64,000 bases of DNA from Alphaproteobacteria bacterium (GTDB taxonomy: Bacteria; Pseudomonadota; Alphaproteobacteria; UBA828), in assembly GCA_965214705.1 (NCBI GenBank), contig OZ243972.1, positions 2,048,001 to 2,112,000 on the forward strand. Direction: 5' to 3'. The position numbers and the translations under genes were made by a program. Under the pieces are notes generated by a model. It was not told where the DNA came from and searched no databases. It saw nothing but the letters and a program-made list of their open reading frames with translations. This document shows positions 731 to 25,037 of this stretch, piece by piece (within the stretch, counting starts at the first letter, position 1; each line of letters starts with the position of its first letter).

Positions 731-781
731 GCACGTGCCGGGGATCGCTTGCTCAAGGCATCGGGAGGCGGAGGCATCGCA

Positions 782-994
782 ATGCAAGAGGGGTTCGCGG
801 CGGTCGTAAAGCAATCCGGTCCCTGGTGGATCGGATGGATCGAAGAAATTCCCGGTGTCAATTGCCAGGGGCGCACCAGAGAAGAGCTGCTGGAAACGCT
901 TCGGGTAACCTTGCGTGAGGCATTGGAGCTCAATCGCCGTGAGGCCATCGAGGCCGCCGGGCACGATTATGAGGAAGCAACGGTCGTCATATGA
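782..994 (+). CDS. hicB: HicB-family antitoxin
   Basis: WWIGWIEEIPGVNCQGRTREELLETL signature; GGAGG RBS before ATG 782. Confidence 0.85.
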   Translation: MQEGFAAVVKQSGPWWIGWIEEIPGVNCQGRTREELLETLRVTLREALELNRREAIEAAGHDYEEATVVI

Positions 995-1086
995 AACGCC
1001 GCAAACTCGTGCGGCACCTGCGACAACATCACTCGTGTCACGCCCTCACTTGCGGTAGTGCATGGCAACGCCTGCCGCACCTATAA
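991..1086 (+). pseudogene. Truncated HicA toxin remnant
   Basis: ATGA overlap with hicB stop; MKRRKLVRHLRQH resembles the HicA N-terminus, then similarity is lost and the frame closes at 31 codons. Confidence 0.6.
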
Positions 1087-1119
1087 TGCGCCGCCGGTGA
1101 GCGAGGGGGAGCAGCCACC

Positions 1120-1998
1120 ATGTATCCAGCACCGATCGACGAGTATGTGCGGCCGGCGACGGTCGCGGACGCGCTCGCCGCACTCGGCCGCTACGACGAA
1201 GGCGACGCGGTCTTCGTGGCCGGCGGCCAGAGCCTCATGCAGGCGGTCAAGGCGCGGCTGGTCCGCCCACGCTGCCTGATCGACCTCCAGGCGGTGGATG
1301 GGCTCGCCGGCATCGATGTCGGCACGGACGGGGTCCGCATCGGGCCGATGACCCGCTACGCGGAGATCGCCCGTGACGAGCGCCTCACCGGCGCCTGCGC
1401 CGCGCTCCGCGACGCGGCCCAGCGCGTTGGCGACCGGCAGGTGCGCAACCGGGGCACCATCGGCGGCAGCCTCTGCTGGAACTATGTCGCCGCCTGCATG
1501 CCGCCCACCGTGATCGGGTTGGGTGCTGAGCTGGAACTGACGGCGGCCGACGGCGGCACGCGCACCCTCGCAGCGGAAGACTTCATCGGCGGCCCGCTGG
1601 AGACGGCGCGGGAGGAGAACGAGATCCTCACGGCCATCACCATCCCGGCGGCCAAGGGGAGCGCCGGCAGCGCCTACAAGAAGTGGGGCCTCGTCACCGA
1701 CGCGCTGCCGGTGATCGGGGTCTGCGTCGCGTTGGAGGCGGCCGACGGGCGCTGCACCAGCGCGCGCGTCGCTGTCGGCGGGCTCGCGAACGGGCCCACG
1801 CGCTCGGGCGCTGCCGAGGAGGCGCTGGTCGGCGTCGCCGCCGGCGATGGAGACGGCATCGCGGCGGCGCTCGCCAAGGCCGCAGACGAGATCGAGACCC
1901 AGGAGGATCTCTGGGCCGATAGCGACTATCGCAAGCAGTTGATTCGCTCGCTGGGTGCCGAGGTCACGGCCACGGCCTTCGCGCGAGCGGCGGGCTAG
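1120..1998 (+). CDS. Molybdenum hydroxylase FAD-binding (medium, CoxM/CutM-like) subunit
   Basis: AGGQSL and VRNRGTIGGS FAD motifs. Confidence 0.92.
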   Translation: MYPAPIDEYVRPATVADALAALGRYDEGDAVFVAGGQSLMQAVKARLVRPRCLIDLQAVDGLAGIDVGTDGVRIGPMTRYAEIARDERLTGACAALRDAAQRVGDRQVRNRGTIGGSLCWNYVAACMPPTVIGLGAELELTAADGGTRTLAAEDFIGGPLETAREENEILTAITIPAAKGSAGSAYKKWGLVTDALPVIGVCVALEAADGRCTSARVAVGGLANGPTRSGAAEEALVGVAAGDGDGIAAALAKAADEIETQEDLWADSDYRKQLIRSLGAEVTATAFARAAG

Positions 1999-2020
1999 GA
2001 GCGGGGAGAGGAATCCAGCA

Positions 2021-2494
2021 ATGAGCACCACCACGATCACGGTGACGATCAACGGCGAGGTCTTCGAGGAGACCGTGCCGGTCCGCATGCTGCTGGTCGA
2101 CTTCATCCGCGAGCGCGCGGCGCTCACCGGCACCCACATCGGCTGCACCTACGAGGGCGTCTGCGGCGCCTGCACGGTCCAGATCGATGGCGAGGCGGTG
2201 AAGTCCTGCCTGATGGTCGCCGCCCAGGCCGACGGGCACGAGATCACCACCGTCGAGGGTCTGGCCCAGGGCGGCGAGCTCTCGCCCCTGCAGCGCGCCT
2301 TCAACGAGCAGCACGCCCTGCAGTGCGGCTACTGCACGCCGGGCATCCTGATGAACATGGACGAGTTCCTGCGCGAGAACCCGGACCCGACGGACGACGA
2401 GATCCGTCACGGGCTGGTCGGCAATCTCTGCCGGTGCACCGGCTATGCGCACATCGTCGACGCGGTCCGTCAGGCCGCGAAAGAGACCAGGTGA
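2021..2494 (+). CDS. Molybdenum hydroxylase 2Fe-2S (small, CoxS-like) subunit
   Basis: GCxxGxCGAC, QCGYC and GNLCRC cysteine motifs; start moved to ATG 2021 after GAGAGGA. Confidence 0.93.
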   Translation: MSTTTITVTINGEVFEETVPVRMLLVDFIRERAALTGTHIGCTYEGVCGACTVQIDGEAVKSCLMVAAQADGHEITTVEGLAQGGELSPLQRAFNEQHALQCGYCTPGILMNMDEFLRENPDPTDDEIRHGLVGNLCRCTGYAHIVDAVRQAAKETR

Positions 2495-4908
2495 CGGAGG
2501 CGAAGCGGATGACCGGGACAAGCGAAGGCTGGGTCGGCAGCCACTTCCACCGCAAGGAAGACCACCGCCTCATCACCGGCAAGGGGCGGTTCCTGGCCGA
2601 TATCGCGCGGCCGGGCGCGCTCCACATCGTGTTCAAGCGGAGCGATCACGCGCATGCCACGATAAAGAGCGTCGACGTGAGCGCGGCCGAGGCGATGGCG
2701 GGCGTTGTCGCGGTCGTCACCGGCGACGACATCAAGGACGAGATACTGCCCATGCCGCAGCCGGTGGTGCAGCCCGCGCTGCCCGCCACCTACCCAAAGC
2801 ACTGGCCGCTCGCGGTCGGCAAGGTGAAGTGGCACGGCGAGCCGGTGGCGGCGGTGATCGCCCGCGATCCCTACGTCGCTGCAGACGCGGCCGAGGCCAT
2901 CGAGGTCGATTACGACCCGCTGCCCTACGTCGGCGATGCCGAGAGCGCGCTCGCGGACGGCGCCACCATCGTCCACGAGGACTGGCCCGACAACATCATC
3001 TTCCAGATGGATTTCACCGGCGGCGCCGACGAGGAAAGCCAGCGGGCGCACGAGGCCAAGGTTCAGGAGGTCTTCGACGGCGCGGATATCGTGATCAAGC
3101 AGCGCTTCACCTGCCACCGCTGCGGCGTAGCGCCGATGGAGACCAGAGGCGCGCTCTTCGAGTGGGACGAGTCGGATGGCCTGACCGGCTGGCTCACCAC
3201 CCAGCGGCCCCATATCGACCGCCTTGCGCTCTCGGACATCCTCGAAATCCCCGCCGAGAAGATCCGCATCATCGCGCCGCGCGACCAGGGTGGCGGCTTC
3301 GGCGTCAAGGCGCCGTTCTACCGCGAGCCCATGCTGATCGCTTACATGGCGAAGAAGCTTGGCCGTCCGATCCGCTGGATCGAAACCCGCCAGGAACACC
3401 TGATGGCGGTGAGCCAGGAGCGCGACCAGATTCACGATCTCGAGGTCGCGGCAGCGAGTGACGGCAAGCTGCTCGCGATCCGCGATCGCGGCCTCGCCGA
3501 CTGCGGCGACGGCTGCGAGGGGGTCTACTGGGGCTTCCTGATGCCCTTCCTCGGCGCGGTCGAGCTGCCCAACGCCTACGACTGGCCGATCGGCGACATC
3601 AAGGTGAAGGTCGCCATCACCAACAAGTCGGCGCTCTCGCCGGCCCGCGCCTTCGGCGAGTTTCCCACGCGCTTCGCCATGGAGCGCGCCATCGACATGG
3701 TGGCCAAGCGCTGCGGCATGGAGCCGGCGGACGTGCGCCGCAAGAACCTGGTCGCCACGCTCCCCCACATGTCGATTACCAACGAGTATTTCGACAGCGG
3801 CGACTTCATCAAGGTGTGGGACAACCTGATGGCAGAGGCCGACCTGCCGGGCTTCCGCGCGCGCCAGGCGGAGGCGCGGGCCGAAGGCCGCTATCTCGGC
3901 ATCGGCTTCGGCCTCGGCGTGGAGCTTTCGGGCGTCGCCTCCGAGCTGTTCGTGCCGATGGAGAACCAGCCGGGCTATGGTGCGGCGACGGTGCGGCTCG
4001 ACCCGCGCGGCAAGGTGCTGGTGTTCGAGGGCGACGCGCCCGGCGGGCAGGGGCACGAGACCACGGTGGCCCAGGCGGTCGCCCACAGCTTTGGCATCCA
4101 CCCCAACGACGTGGTGGTGACCACCGGGGACACGGGCACCACGCCTTTCGGCTCCGGCACCGTCGGCGCCCGCGCCGGTTCCTACTTCGTCAGCGCCGCG
4201 GTCCAGGCCTGCGACTTCCTGAAGGACAAGATCGGGCGCATCATGGCCCACGATCTGGCCCTTGCGGACACGTCGCCGGCGGACTTCGAGTTCAGGGACG
4301 GCTTCGTCACCTACCAGAAGGACGCGAACATCAAGAAGACGTTCCGCGAGGCGGTGGAGCGCGTCATCATGGCGCCGATCAACCTGCCTGAAGGCGAATC
4401 CGGCGGCCTGGAGCATACCGCCTTCTTCGAGGCCGAGAAGCCGATGATCGCCTTCAACGCCGATGTCTGCACGGTCGAGGTCGATATCGAGACCGGCCAG
4501 TTCAAGATCCTGAGCTGGACCACGTCGGAGGACGTGGGGCAGATCATCAACCCGCAGATCGTCGAGGGGCAGATGCAGGGTGCCATCGTCCAGGGGCTGT
4601 CGAACACCATGTTCGAGGAGTTCGTCTACGACGAGAACGGCCAGCAGCTCACCGCCGATTTCGAGAACTACAAGCTCGCGACTGCGGCCGATGTGCCGGA
4701 CATCAAGGTGACCCATGCGCCGACGCCCTGCCCGTACACGCCGCTCGGCAGCCGCGGCATCGGCGAGGGGCGGCCGTCCGACGTGCCGGGCACGCTCTGC
4801 AACGCGATCTGCGATGCGCTTGAGCCTTTCGGCATCGAGATCACGGACCTGCCGCTCAGGCCGGATTCGCTCTGGCGCAAGATCCAGGCGGCGCGCGGGG
4901 CCTCCTAG
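2491..4908 (+). CDS. Xanthine dehydrogenase-family molybdopterin-binding (large) subunit
   Basis: GGGFGVK, GQGHET, EGQMQG and RGIGE motifs; GTG start overlaps the stop of the small subunit. Confidence 0.92.
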   Translation: MTEAKRMTGTSEGWVGSHFHRKEDHRLITGKGRFLADIARPGALHIVFKRSDHAHATIKSVDVSAAEAMAGVVAVVTGDDIKDEILPMPQPVVQPALPATYPKHWPLAVGKVKWHGEPVAAVIARDPYVAADAAEAIEVDYDPLPYVGDAESALADGATIVHEDWPDNIIFQMDFTGGADEESQRAHEAKVQEVFDGADIVIKQRFTCHRCGVAPMETRGALFEWDESDGLTGWLTTQRPHIDRLALSDILEIPAEKIRIIAPRDQGGGFGVKAPFYREPMLIAYMAKKLGRPIRWIETRQEHLMAVSQERDQIHDLEVAAASDGKLLAIRDRGLADCGDGCEGVYWGFLMPFLGAVELPNAYDWPIGDIKVKVAITNKSALSPARAFGEFPTRFAMERAIDMVAKRCGMEPADVRRKNLVATLPHMSITNEYFDSGDFIKVWDNLMAEADLPGFRARQAEARAEGRYLGIGFGLGVELSGVASELFVPMENQPGYGAATVRLDPRGKVLVFEGDAPGGQGHETTVAQAVAHSFGIHPNDVVVTTGDTGTTPFGSGTVGARAGSYFVSAAVQACDFLKDKIGRIMAHDLALADTSPADFEFRDGFVTYQKDANIKKTFREAVERVIMAPINLPEGESGGLEHTAFFEAEKPMIAFNADVCTVEVDIETGQFKILSWTTSEDVGQIINPQIVEGQMQGAIVQGLSNTMFEEFVYDENGQQLTADFENYKLATAADVPDIKVTHAPTPCPYTPLGSRGIGEGRPSDVPGTLCNAICDALEPFGIEITDLPLRPDSLWRKIQAARGAS

Positions 4909-4944
4909 GCCGTATCCCCCTGCCGTGCCGCGCGGATAGGGGCG

Positions 4945-6291
4945 ATGGCGGGAGACAGAGTACGGATCGGCTCCGGCGCGGGCTTCGCCGGCGACCGCTG
5001 GGAGCCGGCGGTCGAGTTGGTCGAACGCGGCGGCATCGACTACATCGCCTTCGAGTGCCTGGCCGAGCGCACCATCGCGCGCGAAACCCTCGCGCTGCGG
5101 CGGGGGCAGGGGAGCGGCTACAACCCCCAGCTTGAGGACCGTATGCGCGCGGTGCTGCCGCCGGCCGCGACGCAGGGCGTGCGCGTGCTCAGCAACATGG
5201 GCGCCGCCGATCCGCTGGCGGCGGGCCGCAAGACGGCCGAGATCGCGGCCGAGCTCGGGCTCGACGATCGCCGTTGCGCGGTGCTGCTGGGCGACGATGT
5301 GCGGGGCGCCGTCACCGCCCGCCCCGACCTGCCGCTGATGGAGACCGGCGCGCCGCTGGAGAGCATCCTGCCGCGTATGGCGTCTGCGAACGCCTACTTG
5401 GGGGCCGACGCGGTGACGTCGGCGCTGGAAACGGGGGCGCCGGTGGTAGTGACCGGCCGGGTCGCCGACCCCTCGCTCTTCGTCGGCCCCATCATCCATG
5501 CGCTGGGCTGGGATTACGACGACTACGTCAGTCTCGCGCAGGCCACGGCGACGGGTCACCTGCTTGAATGCGCGGGCCAGGTGACCGGCGGCTACTTCGC
5601 CGACCCCGGCGTCAAGGACGTGGCCGGCCTCGCGCGCCTCGGCTTCCCTTTCGCCGACGTGAGCGATGCAGGCTCGGTCACCATCGGCAAGTGCGCCGGC
5701 TCAGGCGGGCGCATCGACGCCGCCACCTGCACCGAGCAGCTGCTCTACGAGGTCGACGATCCGTCGGCCTACGTCACGCCCGACTGCGTGCTGGACATGA
5801 CCGGCATCGCCTTTCGTGAGGTCGGGCCCGACCGCGTGGCGGTCTCAGGTGCGCGGGCGCAGCCGCGCACCGATACCTACAAGGTGAGCATCGGCTATTT
5901 CGACGGCTACCTGGGCGAGGGACTGCTCTCCTACGGCGGACCCAACGCGGTCGCTCGCGCCCGGCTCGCTGGCGAGATCGTGGCCGAGAGGCTGCGCCTG
6001 CGCGGCTTCGCCTACAACGCGTTGGATGCCCGCCTGATCGGGATCGACAGCCTGCACGGGCCTGGCGCGGGCCGGCCCGAGCCCTACGAGGTCAGGCTCC
6101 GCGTCACCGGCCGCACGCAGGACAGGAAGGCGGCAGAAGCGGTGGGCTTCGAGGTCGCGGCGCTTTACACCAACGGGCCGGCGGGCGGGGCAGGGGACGC
6201 GGCGAGCGTGCGCGAGATCCTCGCGGTGCAGTCCGTGCTGCTGCCGCGCCATCTGGTCACGCCCCGCGTCGAGGTGGCGGACGCCGGCTGA
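4945..6291 (+). CDS. Acyclic terpene utilisation AtuA family protein (DUF1446)
   Basis: RIGSGAGFAGDR, FECLAERT, TGRVADPSL, GHLLECAGQVTGG and YTNGPAGGAG. Confidence 0.9.
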   Translation: MAGDRVRIGSGAGFAGDRWEPAVELVERGGIDYIAFECLAERTIARETLALRRGQGSGYNPQLEDRMRAVLPPAATQGVRVLSNMGAADPLAAGRKTAEIAAELGLDDRRCAVLLGDDVRGAVTARPDLPLMETGAPLESILPRMASANAYLGADAVTSALETGAPVVVTGRVADPSLFVGPIIHALGWDYDDYVSLAQATATGHLLECAGQVTGGYFADPGVKDVAGLARLGFPFADVSDAGSVTIGKCAGSGGRIDAATCTEQLLYEVDDPSAYVTPDCVLDMTGIAFREVGPDRVAVSGARAQPRTDTYKVSIGYFDGYLGEGLLSYGGPNAVARARLAGEIVAERLRLRGFAYNALDARLIGIDSLHGPGAGRPEPYEVRLRVTGRTQDRKAAEAVGFEVAALYTNGPAGGAGDAASVREILAVQSVLLPRHLVTPRVEVADAG

Positions 6292-6626
6292 TGCTGATCG
6301 TCCACGACCTCGCCCACGCCCGCGCCGGCGACAAGGGGCATTCCGTCAACGTCTCGGTGACCGCCTATGACGAGGCGGGCTACGAGCGGCTCAAGCGCGA
6401 ACTGACCGAAGCGCGCGTGGCGGCGGCCTTCGCCGCGCTCGCGGACGGCCCGGTGCGCCGCTACGCCCTGCCGGGGCTCGGGGCGTTCAACTTCGTCATC
6501 GAGCGGGTGCAGGGCGGCGGCGTCACCGCGACCGGCGCGCTCGACATCCACGGCAAGAGCCTGTCCTCGCTGATGCTCACGATCCCGCTGCCCGGCAACG
6601 AGCCGGAGGGCGAGACGCCGGGCTGA
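6291..6626 (+). CDS. Small AtuA-associated protein
   Basis: LAHARAGDKG...LDIHGKSLS motif; overlaps the atuA stop. Confidence 0.85.
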   Translation: MLIVHDLAHARAGDKGHSVNVSVTAYDEAGYERLKRELTEARVAAAFAALADGPVRRYALPGLGAFNFVIERVQGGGVTATGALDIHGKSLSSLMLTIPLPGNEPEGETPG

Positions 6627-6636
6627 CTCGAGAATC

Positions 6637-7221
6637 TCACAAGGGCCAGGGTCTGCCCGGCATGCGAAGCCCCACGCCGCGCTCTGGTGGGATCTTAGGG
6701 ACGCCTGTTGTTCTTGAGGCTACGCAGTCTTTGGCGGTGCACGCCGGCTCGCATTCCTCGTATACCGAACACACTTCGTAACGCACATCAAGTCTTTCAT
6801 GAAGAAACTCATCGAACCGCTCAAAAAGTGGAGGATTAACTGTCTCTGGTTCGACCCTAAGAATAACTTTCTGTCTTCCCACACCCAGATAACTGCCGAA
6901 CGATAAGTCGATGTAACCCGGAGGCGTATTTCCTACAATTAAGCCCTCTTCCTGCATCTTCTTGACAACCGATTCCATATCGCTCGTCTGCCCGTCCAAC
7001 TCTACAGATTTGTAGTTGATCTTAGCGGGGCCGGAGCCTTCATTCATCAGGAGAATCCCCAACATTTCACGCCCTGTATCACTCGTGATCACGGGCAATA
7101 CCCAAGGTGTAGCTGTCAATCTATGATGCTCTCTGGTCTCGATGCTTGTCCAGACCAGAGCCGCCGCAGTTACAATAGAGACCACGAGACCGGCCCATGC
7201 TATCAAGTTCTTTAGCTTCAT
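6637..7221 (-). CDS. Hypothetical protein with N-terminal transmembrane helix, lower GC than flanks
   Basis: 194-aa ORF, hydrophobic N-terminus, GAAGGA RBS, AT-richer codon usage. Confidence 0.65.
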   Translation of the reverse strand: MKLKNLIAWAGLVVSIVTAAALVWTSIETREHHRLTATPWVLPVITSDTGREMLGILLMNEGSGPAKINYKSVELDGQTSDMESVVKKMQEEGLIVGNTPPGYIDLSFGSYLGVGRQKVILRVEPETVNPPLFERFDEFLHERLDVRYEVCSVYEECEPACTAKDCVASRTTGVPKIPPERGVGLRMPGRPWPL

Positions 7222-14983: not shown

Positions 14984-16132
14984 ATGACCGTGGACGGACC
15001 GCTCAACGGCGTCACCGTAATCGACCTGACGCGCGTGCTCGCCGGGCCATACTGCACCCTGGTGCTGGCCGATCTCGGCGCCCGCGTGATCAAGGTGGAG
15101 ACGCCGGGCGGCGGCGACGATTCCCGCGCCTTCGGCCCCTTCGTGGGCGGAAAATCCGCCTACTTCATGTCGATCAACCGCGGCAAGGAGAGTATCTCCC
15201 TCAACCTCAAGGACGACGGCGACCGCGCGGTCTTCGAGGAGCTGCTGGCGGACGCCGACGTGGTGATCGAGAACTTCCGCGCCGGCACCATGGAGCGCCT
15301 CGGCTACGGCTGGGAGGCGTTGCACGAACGCTACCCGCGCCTGATCTACGCGGCCTGTTCGGGCTTCGGCCACACCGGGCCCTACGCCGGCCGGCCGGCC
15401 TACGACGTAGTGGTGCAGGCCATGGGCGGCATCATGAGCCTGACCGGCCAGCCCGGCGGGCCGCCCGCGCGGGTGGGAAGCTCCGTCGGCGATATCGTGG
15501 CCGGGCTGTTCACGGCGATCGGCATCAACGGCGCGCTCTACCGGCGGACCATGACGGGCGAGGGCGTGAAGCTCGACGTTTCCATGCTGGATTGCCAGGT
15601 GGCGATCCTGGAGAACGCGCTCGCGCGCTACTTCGCCTCGGGCGAGGTGCCGGGGCCGCTGGGCACGCGCCACCCCTCGATCACGCCGTTCCAGGCCTAC
15701 GCGACCGCCGACGGGTACGTGGTCATCTCCGCCGGCAACAACACGCTGTTCGCGACGCTTTGCAACGCGTTGGAAAGGCCCGACCTCGCCGAAGACCCGC
15801 GCTTCGTCGACAACCCCGCGCGCAACGCCAACATTGACGCGCTGGAGCAGGAGTTCGAGGCGATTCTGACGGCGCAGCCGACGGCGCACTGGCTCACGGT
15901 GCTGGAAGAGGCGGGCGTGCCGTGCTCGCCGATCAACCGGGTGGATGACGTGCTTGCCGACCCGCAGGTCGCGGCACGCAACATGGTGATCCGGGCCCAG
16001 GACCCGGTCGCAGGGGAGGTGCAGATGGCAGGCAATCCGATCAAGCTCTCGGGCTATCCCGACCCGACCGAACGGCCGCCCGCGCCGGAGCTCGACCAGC
16101 ACCGGCAGGCGATCGTCGACGGAGACCAGTGA
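14984..16132 (+). CDS. CaiB/BaiF family III CoA transferase
   Basis: DLTRVLAGP, ADLGARVIKVE, NRGKES, ENFR and YDVVVQAMGG. Confidence 0.95.
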   Translation: MTVDGPLNGVTVIDLTRVLAGPYCTLVLADLGARVIKVETPGGGDDSRAFGPFVGGKSAYFMSINRGKESISLNLKDDGDRAVFEELLADADVVIENFRAGTMERLGYGWEALHERYPRLIYAACSGFGHTGPYAGRPAYDVVVQAMGGIMSLTGQPGGPPARVGSSVGDIVAGLFTAIGINGALYRRTMTGEGVKLDVSMLDCQVAILENALARYFASGEVPGPLGTRHPSITPFQAYATADGYVVISAGNNTLFATLCNALERPDLAEDPRFVDNPARNANIDALEQEFEAILTAQPTAHWLTVLEEAGVPCSPINRVDDVLADPQVAARNMVIRAQDPVAGEVQMAGNPIKLSGYPDPTERPPAPELDQHRQAIVDGDQ

Positions 16133-18579
16133 TGCGCGCCGCGGCCTTTGACAGGGCAGGTCGGCGGCAGGGCATCACATTCAGGCGGCTTCGACCGTAC
16201 TGCGCGGCGGCCGGCGCGCTGGCGCTGCTCGGCGTGCTGCTCGCGGCGGGCTCTTGCTCCTGGTTCGCGCTCCCCTCCTACGACGACGCCGAGGAGGTCT
16301 CCGGCCTCGATGCGCCGGTGGAGGTGGTCCGCGACGCCCATGCGATCCCCCACATCTATGCCCAGTCGCCCAGGGACGGCGCCTTCGCCATGGGCTACGT
16401 CCACGCGCAGGACCGGCTCTGGCAGCTTGAGCTGCAGCGCAGGATCGGCCAGGCGCGGCTCGCGGCGGTGGTGGGCGAGCCCGGCATCGAGACCGACAGG
16501 TTCCTGCGCACGCTGGGCCTCTACCGCGTCGCCGAGCGCAACTTCGAGAAGCTGGAGCCCGAGGTGCAGGCGATCTACGAGGCCTATGCCGCCGGCGTGA
16601 ACGCCTATCTGGAGACCCGCTCCGAGATGTTGCCGCCCGAGTTCGTCCTGCTCGGCCACGAGCCCGAGCCCTGGCGGCCGGCTGACAGCCTGGTCTGGCT
16701 CAAGATCATGGCCTGGGACCTGGGCGACAACTTCAGCGACGAGCTGCTGCGCGCGCGCCTCGCCGGCAAGCTCGACCGGGCACAGCTGCAGGACCTCTGG
16801 GCCCAGCATCCGGACGATCCGCCCATGGGGCCGCATGGCGAGGCGCCGGCCTTCGACCCCGCCGGCATCGATTACGCGGCGCTGGATGCGGCCGTGGACG
16901 GCGCCGTGCCGGCGCTGCGTGCCTCCGGCCTCGGCTCCAATGCGTGGGTGCTGAGCGGCGCGCACACGGAATCCGGCAAGCCGCTGCTGGCGAACGACCC
17001 GCACCTGCGGCTGGAGATCCCGAGCGTCTGGTACCTCGCCCACGTCTCGACGCCCGAGTTCGAGGTCGTGGGCGCGACGCTGCCGGGGCTGCCCTTTCCG
17101 CTGCTGGGCCGCACCCAGCATCTCGCCTGGGGCTTCACCAACACCGGGCCGGACGTGCAGGACCTCTTCATCGAGCGGCTCGACCCCGAGGACTCCGCGC
17201 GCTACCTCGCGCCGGAGGGGAGCCTCGCCTTCGACGTCCGCACCGAGACCATCGAGGTGAGCGGCGGCGATCCCATCGAGCTCACGGTGCGCGAGACGCG
17301 CCACGGGCCGGTGGTCTCCGACGTGCTGGAGGATACCGAGGAGTACCTGGAGGCGGGCCACGAGCTCGCGTTCTCCTGGACCGCGCTGGCGGACGACGAC
17401 AAGAGCGCCGAGGCGCTGGTGAATGCCACCGGGGCGGAGGACTGGGAGAGCTTCGTCGAGGCGGTGAGCGACCTCAGCGTGCCGCAGCAGACCATGGTCT
17501 TCGCGGACGCCGACGGCAACATCGGCTACGTGGCGCCGGGCCACGTGCCGATCCGCGCCTCGGGCCAGGGCCACATGCCGGTGCCGGGCTGGACCGGCGA
17601 GCACGACTGGGTGGACCGCGTGCCCATCGATGCGCTGCCGGGGGACCACAACCCGCCGTCGGGCCGCATCGTCACCGCCAACAATCGGATGGTCGCCCCC
17701 GACTATCCCTATTACCTGACCGACGACTGGACCCCGCCCTACCGCGCGCAGCGGATCGAGGCGCTGCTCGACGCCCGGCCCAAGCACGACGTGGCGAGTT
17801 TTTCGGCGATCCAGCAGGACCTGGTCTCGCTCGCTGCGGCGCGGCTCACGCCGGTGCTGCTGGGGCTCGCCGAGCCCTCGAACGACACCATGCGCACCGC
17901 GCTCGCCATGCTCGGCGATTGGGACCACGGCATGCAGCCGGATCGCACGGAGCCGCTCATCTACATGGCGTGGGTCCGGGAGCTGATGCACGTGCTCTTC
18001 GCCGACGAGCTGGGCGACGTGTTCGAGGACTACTGGAAGATCCGCACCGAGGTGATCCACCGCGCGCTCGGCGAGCGCCAGGCGTGGTGCGACGACGTGA
18101 GCACCGCAGGCGCGCAGGAGACCTGCGCAGACGCCGTGAGCCGGGCGCTCAAGGTCTCGCTCGAATACCTCGCCGTCACCTACGGCCACGACATGGAGGA
18201 CTGGCGCTGGGGCGAGGCCCACGCGGTCCACATGAAGAGCCGCATCCTGGGCGAGGTGCCGGCCATCGGCTCCTGGTTCGAGGTCAACATGCCGACGGGC
18301 GGCGAGAAGGAGACGGTGAAGGCCGGCGGCTTCGACGTGGACGACCCGGAGCGCCCGTTCGCGCAGAACCACGGCGCGGGCTACCGCGCGGTCTACGATC
18401 TTGCGGAGCCCGAGAACTCGGTCTTCGTCATCAGCACGGGGCAGTCCGGCAACCCGCTCTCGTCCTACTACGAGGACTACGCTGAGCCCTGGCGTGACGG
18501 GGAATACCTGCCCATGCTCACCGACCGCGCGGCCGTGGAGGAGGACGCGCTGGGGACGCTGGTTCTAAACCCGAGGTAA
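16129..18579 (+). CDS. Penicillin acylase family Ntn-hydrolase
   Basis: GYVHAQDRLWQ and GSNAW (catalytic Ser), LLANDPHL, GQSGNP; stop codon now supplied by the IS66 end. Confidence 0.93.
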   Translation: MMRAAAFDRAGRRQGITFRRLRPYCAAAGALALLGVLLAAGSCSWFALPSYDDAEEVSGLDAPVEVVRDAHAIPHIYAQSPRDGAFAMGYVHAQDRLWQLELQRRIGQARLAAVVGEPGIETDRFLRTLGLYRVAERNFEKLEPEVQAIYEAYAAGVNAYLETRSEMLPPEFVLLGHEPEPWRPADSLVWLKIMAWDLGDNFSDELLRARLAGKLDRAQLQDLWAQHPDDPPMGPHGEAPAFDPAGIDYAALDAAVDGAVPALRASGLGSNAWVLSGAHTESGKPLLANDPHLRLEIPSVWYLAHVSTPEFEVVGATLPGLPFPLLGRTQHLAWGFTNTGPDVQDLFIERLDPEDSARYLAPEGSLAFDVRTETIEVSGGDPIELTVRETRHGPVVSDVLEDTEEYLEAGHELAFSWTALADDDKSAEALVNATGAEDWESFVEAVSDLSVPQQTMVFADADGNIGYVAPGHVPIRASGQGHMPVPGWTGEHDWVDRVPIDALPGDHNPPSGRIVTANNRMVAPDYPYYLTDDWTPPYRAQRIEALLDARPKHDVASFSAIQQDLVSLAAARLTPVLLGLAEPSNDTMRTALAMLGDWDHGMQPDRTEPLIYMAWVRELMHVLFADELGDVFEDYWKIRTEVIHRALGERQAWCDDVSTAGAQETCADAVSRALKVSLEYLAVTYGHDMEDWRWGEAHAVHMKSRILGEVPAIGSWFEVNMPTGGEKETVKAGGFDVDDPERPFAQNHGAGYRAVYDLAEPENSVFVISTGQSGNPLSSYYEDYAEPWRDGEYLPMLTDRAAVEEDALGTLVLNPR

Positions 18580-18847
18580 CTACCCAGGTACCCCGCCGCC
18601 AGATCTGAGTGCGTGCTGATGTTGGTCGCCGCCGGTGCCGTTTGGCCGTCGGCGCATCGATGATCTGCCCCTTGACTGTATAGGCGCGCTCGCCTATGGG
18701 TTGCTCTCTCGCATGAGAGGAGCAGCCGGTGGGGTATTTCGGATCGAAGGCGACGACCGGTCTGAGCCAGGCGCTGATTGCGCTGATGCCCCCGCACTCT
18801 GTCTATATCGAGAGCCACTTGGGGGGCGGGGCGCTGATGAAGCGCAA

Positions 18848-20943
18848 CCCATCTTTGCCATTTTGGCGCGCGCCTGCGACCTAAGTAGTTGCGATGATGG
18901 GCTGATTTTCTGGCCCATCTGGGATTATGGCACTACGTTTGTGCGCTCATCGCGACACTCCCGGGAGCACCGCCCGGCGCCTGTGGGGATCCACCGTGAG
19001 GCCCGCCGCCTGCGCGATGACGCGCGCCTCGGCGTCGGGTTGAGCATCCTGGCGGATGACGATGCGGTTTCCGTCCACCTCCCGGATGGTGGAGGTGAGA
19101 CGCACCCAGCCCGCGAGCTTGTCGCGGATCGTACTCCAGCGGTCATGCAAGCCGTGCGCCGCCAGACGGGTTCGCAGCAGATGAACCGCGTGGTAGGCGA
19201 GGACGGCGATGAACAGGTGGGCGGCGATGCGCGAGGTCTTGGAGTGCCAGACCGGGCGCAGGCCGATTTCGGATTTCAGGCTGCGGAAGGTGGCCTCGAG
19301 CTCTGTGAGCTTCCAGTAGGTTCGGACCACGGTTTCAAGATCCCACTCGACGTGGCTGGTGCGCAGCACATAGATGCCCGCTTGGCGGTCGCGCTCGGCA
19401 TGGAGAGCGTTGCGCCTCCAGCGGACCGCACTGGCCCGCCCCTTCTCTCCGGGCTCGACCTCGATGTCGTACTGACGGTGGACGCGCCTGTACCTTTCCT
19501 TCAGCCGGCCCAGCTTCTCCATCACCTTGGTGAACTGCTTGATGTGGTTCTTCTTCGACAGCCCGCCATGCAGGGCGCGCAGGGCGTCCTCGAAGTTGTG
19601 ACGCTGACGGGCGAGCACGGCCTCGTCCTTCTGCTGGCGCTCATGGCTCCAGACGCACAGGTGCGCTTCGTCGTCCCCTGCCGCGAGACGCCAGGCGCGG
19701 GCATCGTGGCCGGCCCGGGTTTCGAAGGCGGCATCGGCTTCGCGCCCGGGCGGCGCCGAGACGCCGCGGCGAACGGTGATCCAGTGATAGCCGCCCGCCC
19801 GCAGCCAGGCGAGGTTGGCCTCGGTGGAGATGCCGGCGTCCATGATGACCGTGGGCCTGGGGGCGTTGCTGCCGCGCGCTTGGCATTCCAGCCGCCCGAT
19901 GGCGTCGGCGAGAGTGGCCGGCTCGGAGATGTTGCCGGGCAGGATCTCGCTGTGCTGCGGAAAGCCGGCCTGGTTCAGCGACAGGGCCAGGGTCACGATC
20001 GGACAATCGTCACGCCTCTGCTTCGAGCGCCCGAAGCGGGCCAGCGCGGAGCTGGGCCGTCCGGTCATATGGGTGTTGGTCAGGTCGAAGAAGACGATGG
20101 TGTCGGGGATGCCGAAGAGATCGCGCTCCCGGGCGCACAGCGCCTCTTCAAGCGCCGCGCGGTGACGCCACAAGAGGTCGCCGATGCGGTAGAGCTTGCT
20201 GAGCGTGAGCGACTTGCCGCTGTCGACATCGAGCAACTCCAGGGTCGCGCTGTTCGCGCTCAGCCAGCGGAAGGCCTCGCGCTCGCTGGAGGGATGGATC
20301 ATGCGCGCGACCACCAGTGCCGCCGCGATGCGTGCGTCGCGCTCACTTGCGCCCAGCCTCTCCAGCGTCTCGATGAAGCGAAGGTCGTCAAGCGCGGCGA
20401 GAGCCAGGCGCTCGCAGCCCACCGAGCGGACCTGTTCGTGGGAGAGGCTATCGAGACGGACCGTGGCCAGGTCGCTCTCGTCCCCGGGCCGCGACGCGCC
20501 GAGATCGCGGGCGTGAAGCCGCCGTACGACGTCCTCGGCGACGGGGCGCAAGGCGGCATCCGGCTCCAGCAGCGGCTCGCTGCCGGCGAGAAGGGTTTCG
20601 ATCAGAAGCGCCAATTCGCGCCATTGCTCCTCGGGCACACCGAAGTCGGCGCCGAGATTGAGGAGCGTGACCTGGCGCACCCTTCCGCCGATGCGTTCGC
20701 TGCGCACGAGGCGGTAGGTGGCATAGCGCTCGCCACCGTCTCCGCGACCGGTGAGGGTTTTGCGAATGAACATGGCGGCAGGGTCACGGACAGTTTGCGG
20801 ACTGTCAAGGAGCGCCGGCCCACAGACCAAAGATTATGGCACTACAATGGACTTCCCAAAACACAATCCAACAAAATCAGTGCCTTAGATCCCAAAGGCT
20901 ACCCAAAATCAGGCCTTCGGGACCGAAAAGTGGCAAAGATGGG
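18848..20943 (-). mobile_element. IS1634 family element type A, copy 1 (2096 bp)
   Basis: IR CCCATCTTTGCCA at both ends; 4-bp duplication GCAA. Confidence 0.93.
18947..20773 (-). CDS. IS1634 family DDE transposase (type A)
   Basis: MFIRK start, FFDLTN, FGRSKQRR, VIMDAGI and EATFRSLKSEIGLRP. Confidence 0.92.
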   Translation of the reverse strand: MFIRKTLTGRGDGGERYATYRLVRSERIGGRVRQVTLLNLGADFGVPEEQWRELALLIETLLAGSEPLLEPDAALRPVAEDVVRRLHARDLGASRPGDESDLATVRLDSLSHEQVRSVGCERLALAALDDLRFIETLERLGASERDARIAAALVVARMIHPSSEREAFRWLSANSATLELLDVDSGKSLTLSKLYRIGDLLWRHRAALEEALCARERDLFGIPDTIVFFDLTNTHMTGRPSSALARFGRSKQRRDDCPIVTLALSLNQAGFPQHSEILPGNISEPATLADAIGRLECQARGSNAPRPTVIMDAGISTEANLAWLRAGGYHWITVRRGVSAPPGREADAAFETRAGHDARAWRLAAGDDEAHLCVWSHERQQKDEAVLARQRHNFEDALRALHGGLSKKNHIKQFTKVMEKLGRLKERYRRVHRQYDIEVEPGEKGRASAVRWRRNALHAERDRQAGIYVLRTSHVEWDLETVVRTYWKLTELEATFRSLKSEIGLRPVWHSKTSRIAAHLFIAVLAYHAVHLLRTRLAAHGLHDRWSTIRDKLAGWVRLTSTIREVDGNRIVIRQDAQPDAEARVIAQAAGLTVDPHRRRAVLPGVSR

Positions 20944-21493
20944 GCAAGCCTGCGGCCGTGCGCTCGATCGGGATTGACCGCGACGAGCGGGCGCTTGAGT
21001 CCTTCGACTGTGGCTACCCGGTGGAGTTGGTGCACGGCTGCGCCCACTCCTTTCTGGCCTCGTTCCCGTTCCTGGGCCCGGAGCTGGTCTACAGCGATCC
21101 GCCCTATCTGCACGCGACCCGGCGTTCGTCGCAGCGCTACCGCTTCGAGTACGAGGAGGCCGACCACGTCGCGCTCCTCGAACTGCTCAAGGGTCTGCCC
21201 TGCCAGGTGATGGTCTCGGGCCACCCGTCTGCGCTCTATGACGAGTTGCTGGCGGGCTGGCGCCGGCTGGCGCTGCAGGTGACGACCCAGGCCCAGGTGC
21301 GGACCGAGGTGGTGTGGTTCAACTTCGCGCCCGACCGGGTGCACTGGGCGAGCTGCGCGGGCCGCAACTTCACCGACCGCCAGCGCATCAAGCGCAAGGC
21401 GGCCAACTGGGGCCGGCGCTACGAGGCCATGCCGGCGGGCGAACGCCTGGCGGTGCTGGCCGCGATCATGGCCGTCGAGGCTGACGAGGGTTT

Positions 21494-23056
21494 GTGACAG
21501 TGTCGCGCTGGCACGCGGACCTCGCCGCTCACGACGAGGCTTTCGCGTGCCTGCAGGACCTTTTCACCCCACAATCCTTCGCGATGACCGCCGTCAAAGC
21601 CATCCGGGAATGGGGCCAGGGGCTGCTTCGCCTGAGCGCGGCGCTGGTCAAGGAGAACGACGCGCTGGAGCGGGAGAACGCCCGCTTGCGCGAGCGGATC
21701 GCCGAACTTGAGCGCAGCGCCGCGCTCGACAGCACCACCAGCTCCAAGCCGCCGGCCAGCGACGGCCTGAAGAAGAAGAGCGGAGACCAGGAGAAGAAGA
21801 GCGGAGACCAGGAGAAGCGCACCCGGAGCCGGCGCGGCAAATCCGACAGGCCCAGCGGCGGTCAGCCGGGCCACAAGGGAACCACCCTGGAGCGGACCGA
21901 GAACCCGGACCACGTCGTGGATCATGATCCGTCCGCCTGTGAGGGCTGCGGCGCGCCGCTGTCGGACGCCGACCGTCACGGAGCCCCCGTCTGCCGGCAG
22001 GTCTTCGATGTGCCCGAGCCGCAGCCCCTCGAGGCCACCGAGCATCGCGGCCATCGCTGCCTCTGCGCCGCCTGCGGTACCATGACAACAGCCGCCTTCC
22101 CGAACGGCGTGAGCGCCCCGGTCCAGTACGGGCCGCGCATCACCGCGTGGGTGACCTACCTGCTGCACGCTCAGTTCATTCCGGAGAAGCGCGTCGCCGA
22201 GGTCATGAGCGATCTCTTCGCGGTCAAGATCTCAACGGCCACCATCGCCGCCATGGGCCGGCGCACCGCCCGGCGCTTCGAGGGCTTCCTCGATCGTGTC
22301 GCAGAGATCATCCGCACCGAAGCCCCGGTCAAACACCTCGACGAGACCGGCATCCGCATCGCCGCCCGGACCCATTGGCTCCACGTGCTGTGCACCCCGT
22401 TGCTGACCATCCTGCGCGTCGCCAGCGGGCGCGGCCATTTCGACGAGAAGCTCAACGGCATCGTCATCCATGACGACTATGCCACCTACTTCGCTCTCGA
22501 GGGCGTGCGCCACGGGGCCTGCAACGCCCATCACCTGCGTGAGCTCCAGGCCCTGATCGAGATCGAGAAGGAAGACTGGGCAACGAGCACGCACCAGCTG
22601 CTCTCCCGTGCCAACAGAGCCGCCCGCTTCGCCCGCAAGAATGATCGCGACGTGCCCGCATCACTGGTCGCCCGCATCTCGCGAGCCTGGGACCGCATCC
22701 TCGAACGTGCCATCGCCGCTCACGAAGAGATGCCGCCGCTCCAGACCGGAAAGCGCGGACGACAAAAGCGCCGCATCGGTCACAACCTCGCGCTCCGGCT
22801 CCAGAAGTACAAGGAGGGGTGCCTGCGCTTCCTCACCGACCCGCGAACCCCGTTCTCGAACAATGAGGCGGAGCGCGATCTGCGAATGGGCAAGCTGCGT
22901 CAGAAAATCTCAGGCGGCTTCCGCTCGATGCAAGGTGCCTGCGACTTCGCCAACCTGCGGTCCGTCATCGCCACCGCTCGAAAACAGCGCTGGAATGTCC
23001 TCGAAACCCTGGCGCACCCCGATCCCATGCAGCTAATCCCGGTACTGCGCTTCTGA
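21494..23056 (+). CDS. IS66 family transposase (single-ORF type)
   Basis: Coiled coil then SSKPPASD, GGQPGHKG, Zn finger, HLDETG, CNAHHLREL, NNEAERDLR and QKISGGFRS; GTGA overlap with the methyltransferase stop. Confidence 0.93.
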   Translation: MTVSRWHADLAAHDEAFACLQDLFTPQSFAMTAVKAIREWGQGLLRLSAALVKENDALERENARLRERIAELERSAALDSTTSSKPPASDGLKKKSGDQEKKSGDQEKRTRSRRGKSDRPSGGQPGHKGTTLERTENPDHVVDHDPSACEGCGAPLSDADRHGAPVCRQVFDVPEPQPLEATEHRGHRCLCAACGTMTTAAFPNGVSAPVQYGPRITAWVTYLLHAQFIPEKRVAEVMSDLFAVKISTATIAAMGRRTARRFEGFLDRVAEIIRTEAPVKHLDETGIRIAARTHWLHVLCTPLLTILRVASGRGHFDEKLNGIVIHDDYATYFALEGVRHGACNAHHLRELQALIEIEKEDWATSTHQLLSRANRAARFARKNDRDVPASLVARISRAWDRILERAIAAHEEMPPLQTGKRGRQKRRIGHNLALRLQKYKEGCLRFLTDPRTPFSNNEAERDLRMGKLRQKISGGFRSMQGACDFANLRSVIATARKQRWNVLETLAHPDPMQLIPVLRF

Positions 23057-23261
23057 AATCCCCCGCCGCTCCGCTCCACGTCAGCGGCACCAGGCCAGAG
23101 GCATCAGTCCATCACGCGTGAGTGCTCGGCGGAATCAGACCTGGGCAGTTACAACCCGAGGTGAATTTGCGTCTCTCGACGCGACTGCATTCGACCGTCC
23201 CGCACCAAACGCAAATGCCTCCCGCACACTCAGACAAATGTGATTGCCCAACAACCAACCA

Positions 23262-25037
23262 TCATTCTGTTTCCTGACCGGTGGAACGATACTGATCAAG
23301 TTTGGCAACTAAGTTGGCAATGTCTTCCGGAATCTCTTCCTTCCGGTATGCTGACGCTATTCGCATATCACTTATAGTAACCTTATATTTCCTCTGAAGT
23401 GCGTTTCTTAACGACTTGAGAACCTTCTTGCCTGATACAATCCCTAGTCTTGAATCTAACTTGGCCCACTTCCCATCAAAAATTTCCAGTGCCTCCGATG
23501 TCAACCCTGCTCTATCCTTGCCACTATCACTGAAAAAATCGCAGTACCTACTAACGTACTGCCCTCTACAATGTGCCTTAAGCTTCCGCGTAATTTGAGC
23601 GAGCAACGGGCGCACATCGACTTCGACTGCGGGCTCTTCACCCGTACGGCGAGCTCGCTCCCTAACTGCATGCAACACCACTCGATTAAGCACTTCAGGC
23701 AACAAAAGATAGTTTTCGATTTCCTTTTGCTCATGAAAGTGAGCAAACTCAATCTTTCTCTCCAATTCTTGCGTCAATGATCTGGATTCCTCCTCGCAAC
23801 GATAGTCTCGGTCATAAATCGCTGCTATCCGCAGCTTGGGTCCAAGCGCCTTCTCAAGTCCCCATGCCAACGCCTCCACCTTGGGCCAAGATTCGAAACC
23901 ACCCGACTCTAACGCGGTCAGTCCACTGCCCGACGCTAAGTCGCCGTAATCTAGAATCCTGGCAAATCTTCTGACAATTTTGAAGTCGTCAATACCCTCT
24001 ACAAACAAGATACGGCCGTTGCGTGCCAACTCCGTCAAAGTTATATTCTGAATCGATCCAATATTGTCGATAGCATGCTGGACACCTTCAATATCATGGA
24101 GACGCCGGGCAGAACGACGTGACTTGTTTACCAACAGAATTTCACTAGGATCTGCCTCACTCATTATTTCCACTGAATGTGTGGCCAATAATATGTCAGG
24201 ATGCTGGTCTCGGAGAATTCCAAGAAGCTGCCGTTGAACTTCCGGGTGTAGGTAGACTTCAGGTTCATCGACAACGAGCAGATCGGAAGTACTACACCGC
24301 GAAATATGAGTAAGCAACTGACACCAGACCTGAAAGCCGGATCCTGCCCAGAATAGCGCTCGGTCAATTCGATTTTCCGAGACGAACATAGTAAGGCGGG
24401 GTTCCATCCCGGTGATTATTTTGGGGCGCGCTATCGACATGCCCGGCCATGTTTCTTCTACTAAAGAGCTGAATTCCTCAAATCCATCAGGATTCTTTAT
24501 CCAGTAGTTGCGAAAGTGTCGACTTGCTCGCGGCGTGCCAGCCGCCCTCCTTACCGTTTCATCAGTAACAGGAACTTCATCTTGCTCGATCGGACCAAGA
24601 ACAGGTATCACCTGTATCTTGACGGGGAAGGAACGCTTGAAAGCCGATGACGTCGCAATGGGCCTGCCAGCTGTGTCCCAGTACATGGTTACACTCCCGG
24701 CGGTAGGAAAATAGAGAAAAAGGAGATTGCCGTTGGAGTAACGAAATTCAAGCCGAGTATCATCGTCATCATAGTTGTAGTGTACATTGTCCAGAGAAAA
24801 TGGCAGGTTTGTTGCCGAAACGAAATACCCGGCAGAGTTATTCTCTGAATGGGTTAATACGCGTGCCGGACGACGGTTCCCAGTGATTCTCAGGGCGTGT
24901 TCAAGAATGCGAAATGCGTTCAATATAGTAGACTTGCCACTGTTGTTGGGGCCAACGAGGATATTGGTGCTGCGCAAAGAGATAGAGTACTCTTGGAATG
25001 CTTGAAAATTCCGGAGTCTGAGAAACGTTATTGGCAT
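23262..25037 (-). CDS. OLD-like ATP-dependent nuclease (ABC ATPase + TOPRIM)
   Basis: Walker A GPNNSGKS, Walker B LLVVDEPE, ATHS, TOPRIM FVEGIDD...YDRD and EIENYLL; low GC. Confidence 0.8.
   Translation of the reverse strand: MPITFLRLRNFQAFQEYSISLRSTNILVGPNNSGKSTILNAFRILEHALRITGNRRPARVLTHSENNSAGYFVSATNLPFSLDNVHYNYDDDDTRLEFRYSNGNLLFLYFPTAGSVTMYWDTAGRPIATSSAFKRSFPVKIQVIPVLGPIEQDEVPVTDETVRRAAGTPRASRHFRNYWIKNPDGFEEFSSLVEETWPGMSIARPKIITGMEPRLTMFVSENRIDRALFWAGSGFQVWCQLLTHISRCSTSDLLVVDEPEVYLHPEVQRQLLGILRDQHPDILLATHSVEIMSEADPSEILLVNKSRRSARRLHDIEGVQHAIDNIGSIQNITLTELARNGRILFVEGIDDFKIVRRFARILDYGDLASGSGLTALESGGFESWPKVEALAWGLEKALGPKLRIAAIYDRDYRCEEESRSLTQELERKIEFAHFHEQKEIENYLLLPEVLNRVVLHAVRERARRTGEEPAVEVDVRPLLAQITRKLKAHCRGQYVSRYCDFFSDSGKDRAGLTSEALEIFDGKWAKLDSRLGIVSGKKVLKSLRNALQRKYKVTISDMRIASAYRKEEIPEDIANLVAKLDQYRSTGQETE

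Follow-up and report, generated by a model that had tools for sequence, protein, structure and literature searches.

A Dam-fold protein of the Upf31 family precedes the transposase in a group of IS66 elements and may belong to a portable cassette for transposase control

Insertion sequences (IS) of the ISBst12 type, within the IS66 family, normally carry a transposase as their sole gene. An IS of this type at positions 18576-23152 of the 64,000-nt stretch analyzed here (the window; positions 2,048,001 to 2,112,000 of contig OZ243972.1 in the alphaproteobacterial assembly GCA_965214705.1) has an extra gene before the transposase gene, and the locus raises the question of what the encoded 222-aa protein (open reading frame 1, ORF1), which resembles a DNA adenine methyltransferase, does in that place. 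We found that ORF1 and the promoter region in front of it form an integral unit that has spread, is under selection and has switched transposase partners, and that an inverted repeat (dyad) at this promoter is specific in position and sequence. We consider it somewhat more probable than the contrary that promoter, operator and Dam-fold regulator make up a portable cassette that sets transposase output.

The window copy encodes a TnpC-type DDE transposase that matched PF03050 (DDE_Tnp_IS66) with an E-value of 1.4E-38 (133.4 bits, cutoff 23.1), and the transposase of an intact copy matched NCBIfam NF033517 (IS66) at 3.2E-84 (283.2 bits, cutoff 180). Repeats starting with GTAA and an 8-bp target duplication are present, and the left repeat is similar to the terminal inverted repeats of the ISBst12 group quoted in excerpts of PMC12898284. 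The genes tnpA and tnpB are absent, but ORF1 is added. An earlier note on this DNA, made from its letters alone, had described two genes enclosed by IS66 repeats and an 8-bp duplication, with the ORF1 stop overlapping the transposase start in GTGA (translational coupling); both features are borne out by the window sequence. It had also proposed to join 18729-18847 to 20948-21497 to restore a protein with the motifs YFGSK, ESHLGGGA, DPPY and EVVWFNF. The join is exact: uninterrupted genomic copies read through it as one 222-aa ORF with these motifs. In the window copy ORF1 is split by a nested IS1634-family element and the copy is inactivated, as the note had said. A Pfam search with the two separate ORF1 pieces of the window gave no match, and an intact ORF1 from the same genome was therefore used in the analyses.

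The source genome (7.92 Mb in three contigs, estimated to be 98.5% complete with 8.7% contamination) contained 13 copies of the element with 98.5-100% identity, and the search for uninterrupted copies suggested in the earlier note returned 12. The uninterrupted element is an active ISBst12-type IS66 IS with a length of 2456 or 2477 bp. Every one of the 13 copies was flanked by its own, different 8-bp duplication, a pattern far outside what chance would give, indicating that the whole unit including ORF1 transposes. ORF1 was intact in seven of the 12 uninterrupted copies. The remaining five (C2:111126-113581, C2:614906-617361, C1:781904-784359, C1:2517651-2520106 and C1:3642877-3645332) form a sublineage in which one additional G, shared by all, lengthens the G-run encoding the GGG of motif I (about codon 31) and disrupts the ORF1 frame. 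These copies lie at different sites with their own duplications and have other substitutions in common. Since the frameshifted sublineage has spread to five sites, ORF1 is not required in cis. The homopolymer at the loop that binds S-adenosylmethionine (SAM) might act as an on/off switch, or it might be an artefact of assembly. Within the transposase gene, 21 bp are tandemly duplicated (~21771-21812 in the window, repeating KKSGDQE); the window copy and 4 of the 12 uninterrupted copies have this duplication, and the other 8 lack it. One copy (C3:2819842-2822350) has an additional 32-bp insertion close to the 3' end of the transposase gene. The genome also held one further fragment of the element and two identical copies of a diverged relative (82% identical in DNA, 88% in ORF1 and 75% in the transposase). 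These two copies, 2383 bp each, lie at one locus (L133, C1:1549300-1556900) as arms at 636-3018 and 4658-7040, inverted relative to each other with 1639 bp between them; this layout is reminiscent of a composite transposon, and the ORFs between the arms had no Pfam match.

We counted the link between the two genes from the transposase side, so that ORF1 was not presupposed. In the source genome ORF1 lay upstream of all 15 close transposases (at least 75% identity) and of none of 12 distant ones (53-58%). Five other genomes holding the element gave the same picture, with ORF1 upstream of 25/25 full-length close transposases (at least 73%) against 0/4 distant ones (40-64%). Over the six genomes this amounts to 40/40 close transposases versus 0/16 more distant IS66 transposases. 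Together with the 13 separate duplications, these counts show ORF1 to be an integral, transposing and coupled part of the element inside its repeats, as the earlier note had held, and they argue against a one-off capture, the outcome by which the note would have stood refuted. A sister IS in the same genome (L132) lacks the methyltransferase-like gene; it has a single gene, is 1666 bp long and shares the 14-bp ends, and the element can therefore be described as an ISBst12-type IS plus an ~810-bp module. When the best genome loci were picked by ORF1 instead, 80/80 had an IS66 transposase, in some cases broken, directly downstream. These loci came from 14 assemblies which, by the titles of their records, are 11 Alphaproteobacteria and one each of Dehalococcoidia, Binatia and Tectimicrobiota; the set was chosen by ORF1 and thus shows spread, not exclusivity. 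Among 400 genomes sampled evenly from the phylum, only two near-full-length ORF1 relatives (42-45% identity) turned up, neither of them of the IS type, and the element was therefore not found in most genomes searched.

The module is not bound to one transposase. A metagenome scan with a 74%-identical ORF1 relative returned 14 loci at which ORF1 was 62-78% identical to the window type. At six of these (L116, L117, L121, L123, L124 and L125) the IS66 transposases were only 23-38% identical to that of the window type; repeats GTAACTACTCACC... enclosed both genes at L123, and another repeat pair, GGTAAGCTCTGAC..., did so at L117. Two loci (L112 and L115) were whole elements with different ends (CAGCA.TTCT...) and a transposase 45.6% identical to an annotated ISNCY family transposase. 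The L112 and L115 transposases were 60% identical to each other, and the ORF1 stop again overlapped the transposase start by the same 4 nt. L113 had the left end seen in these two elements plus a fragment, ORF1 stood alone at one locus, and four loci were too short to judge. A maximum-likelihood tree built from 34 proteins placed every IS-linked ORF1 in a single clade (support 100/99), whose sister consisted of plasmid and viral-contig genes. Within it, the ISNCY-linked group (99/93) was sister to the group with the window type (100/98), and the ORF1 linked to the other IS66 type were both basal and nested, indicating that the module changed transposase partners more than once; the tree was midpoint-rooted and makes no claim on the direction of transfer. 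A function that can serve unrelated transposases fits promoter control better than a role as a transposase-specific cofactor. We also considered an ancient association with a fast-evolving transposase. This was rejected, as ORF1 identity falls smoothly from 96% to 62% while transposase identity falls abruptly from at least 73% to at most 38%, and a transposase at 57% identity that has no methyltransferase-like gene lies between.

ORF1 scored below the cutoffs of both Dam family hidden Markov models (HMMs), with 14.6 bits for PF02086 (cutoff 22) and 25.9 bits for TIGR00571 (cutoff 114.85), while a profile of 73 family members matched DpnM at 2.6E-9 and E. coli Dam at 1.2E-5. The alignment to DpnM paired the SAM-binding N-terminal block and the DPPY block, and left DpnM residues 74-183 (~110 aa) without a counterpart. 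ORF1 therefore has the SAM-binding motifs and catalytic DPPY in a Rossmann fold, as in the D12 class, but not the target-recognition domain of that class, since only ~55 residues separate motif I from DPPY; the earlier note had rightly seen little room for such a domain. Residues D90, P91 and P92 were invariant in the 73 sequences. An AlphaFold (AF2) model, with a predicted local distance difference test (pLDDT) score of 92.9, showed the Rossmann core followed by two long C-terminal helices (residues 181-221), and the top Foldseek match of this model was E. coli Dam (E-value 4.8E-7, TM-score ~0.54). PHROG 56 and PADLOC MTase_II, which are phage and defence methyltransferase profiles, matched the C-terminal two thirds of ORF1 at ~6E-21. 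A homodimer prediction with two copies of ORF1 scored 0.24 against a mark of 0.42 and was not counted as evidence.

A word-indexed protein search returned 3508 proteins at an E-value of at most 0.001, and the best 120 were 71-96% identical, ~220 aa long and, in a few cases, named DNA adenine methylase. An exhaustive search gave 5983 representative clusters, 493 of them below 1E-30, with one full-length representative above 61% identity. In a plasmid collection 198 records matched ORF1, all below 60% identity, and 134 of them were conjugative by MOB-suite typing. The plasmid matches that we inspected were backbone genes, including upf31.0 of IncP-1beta plasmids, and no IS66 adjoined the inspected plasmid relatives (at most 54% identity). 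A viral-contig scan with the relative P0121 found one relative (46% identical to P0121 and 51% to ORF1), which lay beside a phage portal gene with no IS.

The only relative that has been studied is the plasmid protein Upf31. ORF1 aligned over its full length with Upf31 of plasmid pB8 (BLASTP, 43% identity, E-value 5E-61, residues 1-220 against 1-224), and the alignment covered both DPPY and the basic C-terminal helices. Excerpts of a preprint on Upf31 (bioRxiv 10.1101/2024.02.05.579024) report that the full-length hybrid R751/pBP136 protein represses its own promoter from 4.76 to 0.09 XylE units, that a C-terminally truncated R751 allele represses poorly and the C-terminal domain is needed, that this domain is predicted to dimerise and to contact KorB, and that the candidate operator consists of inverted CAGCATCG repeats. 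According to the same excerpts, Upf31 gave no GATC methylation in a dam-minus host, and no kinetic signal in sequencing by the single-molecule real-time (SMRT) method when expressed from a vector in the methylation-free strain ER2796, where the IncP plasmid was absent.

In pB8 the repeats are arranged as TTGACAGCATCG-N10-CGATGCTG between the -35 and -10 boxes. The IS-borne genes had TTGAC-N3-ATAG-N9-12-CTAT ~57 nt before ORF1, so that the IS dyad is positionally equivalent to the Upf31 operator CAGCATCG...CGATGCTG. ORF1 thus shares with the Upf31 family both the full-length similarity, including the C-terminal helical domain, and an inverted repeat overlapping its own promoter. The exact dyad pattern was found in 72 of 80 close loci and in 8 of 14 divergent loci. 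In the source genome TTGAC-N3-ATAG-N9-12-CTAT occurred 16 times, always inside this IS or its relatives, where 0.07 occurrences were expected; the bare ATAG-N10-CTAT had 9 further sites genome-wide, about the level of chance. This search found no dyad in the IS ends, each element having one, at the promoter. The half-site changed together with the protein clade: ATAG/CTAT was found in the IS clade and in Xanthomonas and Shewanella plasmid genes, whereas ATCG/CGAT (ATCG-N10-CGAT) was found in IncP-1beta plasmids, a P. aeruginosa plasmid, two chromosomal genes and three metagenome contigs. The conserved dyad is the main new evidence that the promoter may be autoregulated and may drive the coupled transposase gene as well. 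A scan for consensus sigma-70 promoters missed TTGACT-17-TATGGG because its rule demands a T at the last -10 position, and this result carries no weight either way. In one divergent IS66 (L123, 3402-3460) the -35 box and the operator begin within the 28-nt inverted repeat, only ~25 nt from the tip of the element, and a protein bound to that operator could also hinder transposase binding to the end.

Relative to the window-type copy, the ratio of nonsynonymous to synonymous substitution rates (dN/dS) was 0.14-0.33 for ORF1 (10 informative pairs, one of them saturated) and 0.26-0.28 for the transposase (3 pairs). ORF1 is therefore under purifying selection as tight as that on the transposase. 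Metatranscriptome contigs from four libraries of three studies lay on the element at 85-99% identity, and in two runs of one study a contig spanned the ORF1-transposase junction. This is a weak hint of co-transcription, since DNA carry-over is possible and the contigs are without strand. In one genome (G403), a non-autonomous 1481-bp element derived from a related IS66 was present in over 100 copies; in it, the first ~44 codons of ORF1 are fused to the last few and still abut the transposase start, and the transposase part is degenerate. Examples lie at L147 (reverse strand, 138-1618) and L139-L143, with ends GTAACTGCTCACCCC..., and the L147 copy has the 8-bp duplication GTTCGACC.

In the mechanism that we propose, a three-part module between the left end and the transposase gene would consist of a promoter, an overlapping dyad operator and a 222-aa Dam-fold protein of the Upf31 family. 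With its basic C-terminal helical domain, the ORF1 protein would bind the ATAG-N10-CTAT dyad, which lies between the -35 and -10 boxes. Once bound, it would repress the one promoter that is evident for ORF1 and the transposase gene as a bicistronic operon. Such a repressor can act in trans, and transposase output would therefore drop with rising copy number and peak on entry into a naive cell. Binding and repression are suggested by the homology to Upf31, and trans action and copy-number sensing are inferred as well. Several observations weigh against this proposal. The mechanism is carried over from a plasmid protein that is 43% identical and is described in a single preprint, and Upf31 is proposed to act partly through KorB, for which the IS has no counterpart. 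The -10 box is weak (TATGGG), and the exact dyad is absent from 8/80 close and 6/14 divergent loci, several of which have near-matches. Loss of ORF1 is not obviously penalised while intact copies are present, given the spread of the five-copy frameshifted sublineage. Finally, among full-length homologues, 117 of 118 close and 111 of 116 distant ones retain DPPY. This would not be expected of a pure repressor, speaks for retained catalysis or base flipping, and is the chief argument against pure repression.

That last point leaves several readings in which ORF1 is an enzyme. If ORF1 still transfers methyl groups, a rare site such as the operator is a likelier target than the whole genome. The cassette might then be a self-contained epigenetic switch, in which the Dam-fold protein binds its own operator and N6-methylates its adenines, and transposase is made only from an unmethylated or hemimethylated operator. 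Transposase production would thus be limited to the time shortly after replication or to entry into a naive cell, and the cassette would travel as one and hence be adopted by IS66 and ISNCY-type IS; the negative methylation test of Upf31 would be explained by the absence of its target repeats from the cell. We regard this switch as unlikely. We hold it similarly unlikely that ORF1 functions as an orphan adenine methyltransferase whose site is short or relaxed. Such an enzyme would methylate host and element broadly, give protection from restriction or change host expression, and use autoregulation only to control its own level. The near-invariant catalytic and SAM motifs of ORF1, its matches to phage and type II methyltransferase profiles and its relatives in the backbones of conjugative plasmids, which commonly carry orphan methylases, agree with such an enzyme, and the missing recognition domain could mean low specificity. 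However, a short-site enzyme would show in SMRT data on the whole ER2796 genome, in which, by the preprint excerpts, Upf31 left no signal, as it left none at GATC. ORF1 also falls below the Dam family HMM cutoffs, a chromosomal IS gains little from protection against restriction, and the frameshifted sublineage spread regardless. The Dam-like nature of ORF1 seen in the earlier note is supported.

The Upf31 SMRT test, as the excerpts describe it, was run without the plasmid bearing the inverted repeats, which leaves room for methylation of the operator only. This also bears on the timing model of the earlier note, in which ORF1 methylates the IS ends or the promoter and transposition fires only on hemimethylated DNA after replication, as a self-supplied counterpart to the Dam control of IS10 and IS50. 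A Dam-family fold, conserved catalytic residues and half-sites that overlap the promoter and have adenines on both strands would suit this model, but methylation is putative throughout the family, the single dyad of each element lies at the promoter and not at the ends, and the terminal 14 bp are identical in the sister IS that lacks ORF1. We consider timing by methylation, of which the epigenetic switch is the operator-only form, unlikely as well and slightly less probable than the orphan methyltransferase. Neither marking of the ends nor a shield against restriction nor an altered host methylation, the roles offered in the earlier note, received positive evidence. Finally, ORF1 could be a plasmid-derived passenger with no role in transposition, kept for a benefit to the host or by hitch-hiking. 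IS with methyltransferase passengers are on record (IS220, in excerpts of a review), the sister group of the IS clade is plasmid-borne, and both the frameshifted lineage and the ORF1-deleted derivative, with more than 100 copies in one genome, still spread. A passenger would not be expected, however, to occupy always the upstream, coupled slot in three transposase lineages of two IS families, or to have a dN/dS as low as that of the transposase, and in the elements examined no separate transposase promoter was evident between ORF1 and the transposase start. We find a passenger the least probable of these explanations, and control of transposase output by a repressing ORF1 remains the reading that we prefer.

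Three components are already known, namely the ISBst12-type IS, Upf31 and the category of transporter IS (tIS) with methyltransferase passengers. With the ISBst12 group (ISBst12, ISDge4, ISGst1 and ISGka4) the element shares a single tnpC-type transposase without tnpA/tnpB, GTAACT... repeats and an 8-bp duplication, but it has the ~810-bp module of promoter, operator and ORF1 between the left end and the transposase. The transposase was less than 60% identical to all matches in the plasmid collection, and at most 47.4% among the 25 matches listed. ORF1 is like Upf31 (upf31.0; pBP136, R751, pB8) in size (222 against 224 aa), in DPPY, motif I and the basic C-terminal helices, in the promoter layout with an inverted repeat between -35 and -10, and in being annotated as an adenine methylase. 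Upf31 differs, by the preprint excerpts, in being a single-copy plasmid backbone gene with a proposed KorB partner and the half-site ATCG/CGAT, whereas the IS-borne ORF1 form a separate clade with ATAG/CTAT and are coupled to a transposase gene. The review excerpts list tIS with methyltransferase passenger genes, for example IS220 of the IS1380 family. IS220, which was compared by description only, likewise has a methyltransferase-type gene enclosed in IS inverted repeats, and enclosure of ORF1 by the IS ends is established here. In contrast to such passengers, ORF1 lies upstream of the transposase gene, is translationally coupled to it, brings a promoter and recurs in several IS lineages, which points to a role for the element rather than cargo. 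Literature searches, with ISfinder entries outside their scope, returned no account of a Upf31-like upstream gene in IS66 or ISNCY elements. The novelty claimed in the earlier note is therefore narrowed to this arrangement, as IS with methyltransferase passengers were already on record.

The general view is that most IS depend on weak promoters, on host factors or on small repressors produced from the transposase gene itself. In IS10/Tn10, IS50/Tn5 and IS903, adenine methylation by Dam at the transposase promoter or end times transposition; those elements use host Dam and GATC sites, whereas here the Dam-fold protein is encoded by the element and methylation is putative. The IS-encoded repressor InsA of IS1 and the self-repressing methyltransferases M.SsoII and M.EcoRII bind near their own promoters and limit expression, but their folds and DNA-binding parts are unrelated to ORF1, and InsA binds at the ends of its IS, in contrast to the internal dyad of the present element. 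At least three transposase lineages of two IS families have thus recruited a methyltransferase-fold protein, together with its operator, as an upstream coupled gene. The elements have multiplied to many copies in uncultured bacteria, and the 80 loci come from assemblies labelled as four phyla. The left end, ORF1 and a reporter together would make a concrete and cheap test system for copy-number sensing by an IS, and the same system could show whether Upf31-type "DNA adenine methylase" genes are enzymes, repressors or both. Caution is due with such names, as thousands of these metagenome genes carry the methylase annotation without evidence.

The features of the window copy are collected in Table 1.

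Table 1. Coordinates of the IS66 element, its module and the nested element in the window
Feature	Position	Strand	Basis or remark
Left target-site duplication, 8 bp, AACCCGAG	18568-18575	.	identical to 23153-23160
Left terminal inverted repeat (IRL), GTAACTACCCAGGT	18576-18589	+	14 bp; same end in the sister IS L132, which lacks the methyltransferase-like gene
Promoter-like region and dyad operator: TTGACT (-35), ATAGGCG-cgct-CGCCTAT, TATGGG (-10-like)	18672-18700	+	pattern conservation
ORF1, 5' part: codons 1-39 and part of codon 40; GSK motif, motif I (ESHLGGGA)	18729-18847	+	comparison with the intact form L004:1382-2050
GCAA duplication made by the nested IS1634 element	18844-18847 and 20944-20947		comparison with uninterrupted copies
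Nested IS1634-family element, 2096 bp	18848-20943	-	NCBIfam IS1634 match; boundaries from comparison with uninterrupted copies
Nested IS1634 transposase, 627 aa	18947-20830	-	NCBIfam IS1634, E-value 5.1E-83
ORF1, 3' part: DPPY (motif IV), motifs V-VIII, basic C-terminal helical hairpin, stop	20948-21497	+	
IS66-family transposase, tnpC-type, 520 aa; GTG start overlaps ORF1 TGA	21494-23056	+	Pfam, NCBIfam
Right terminal inverted repeat (IRR), ACCTGGGCAGTTAC	23139-23152	+	
Right target-site duplication, AACCCGAG	23153-23160	.	

The nested IS1634-family element had 20 full-length copies at 99.9% identity or more and 3 partial copies in the genome, and a second copy lies in the window at 41352-43447. 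A family related to it (~78% identity over parts) has many dozens of copies, and the source genome is very rich in IS. The insertion site of the IS66 element coincides exactly with the stop codon of a gene of the penicillin amidase family (16129-18579; Pfam E-value 2.1E-236). The GTAA of the IS itself gives a new TAA, and the amidase protein is unchanged, ending in ...NPR-stop before and after the insertion (23153-23163). Adjoining the IS on the other side, 23262-25037 on the minus strand encodes a 591-aa ATPase that matched OLD, GajA and AriA defence models, with PADLOC values of 1.1E-24 for AriAB and 6.4E-23 for GajA. By eye, the sequence from 23262 onward appears more AT-rich.

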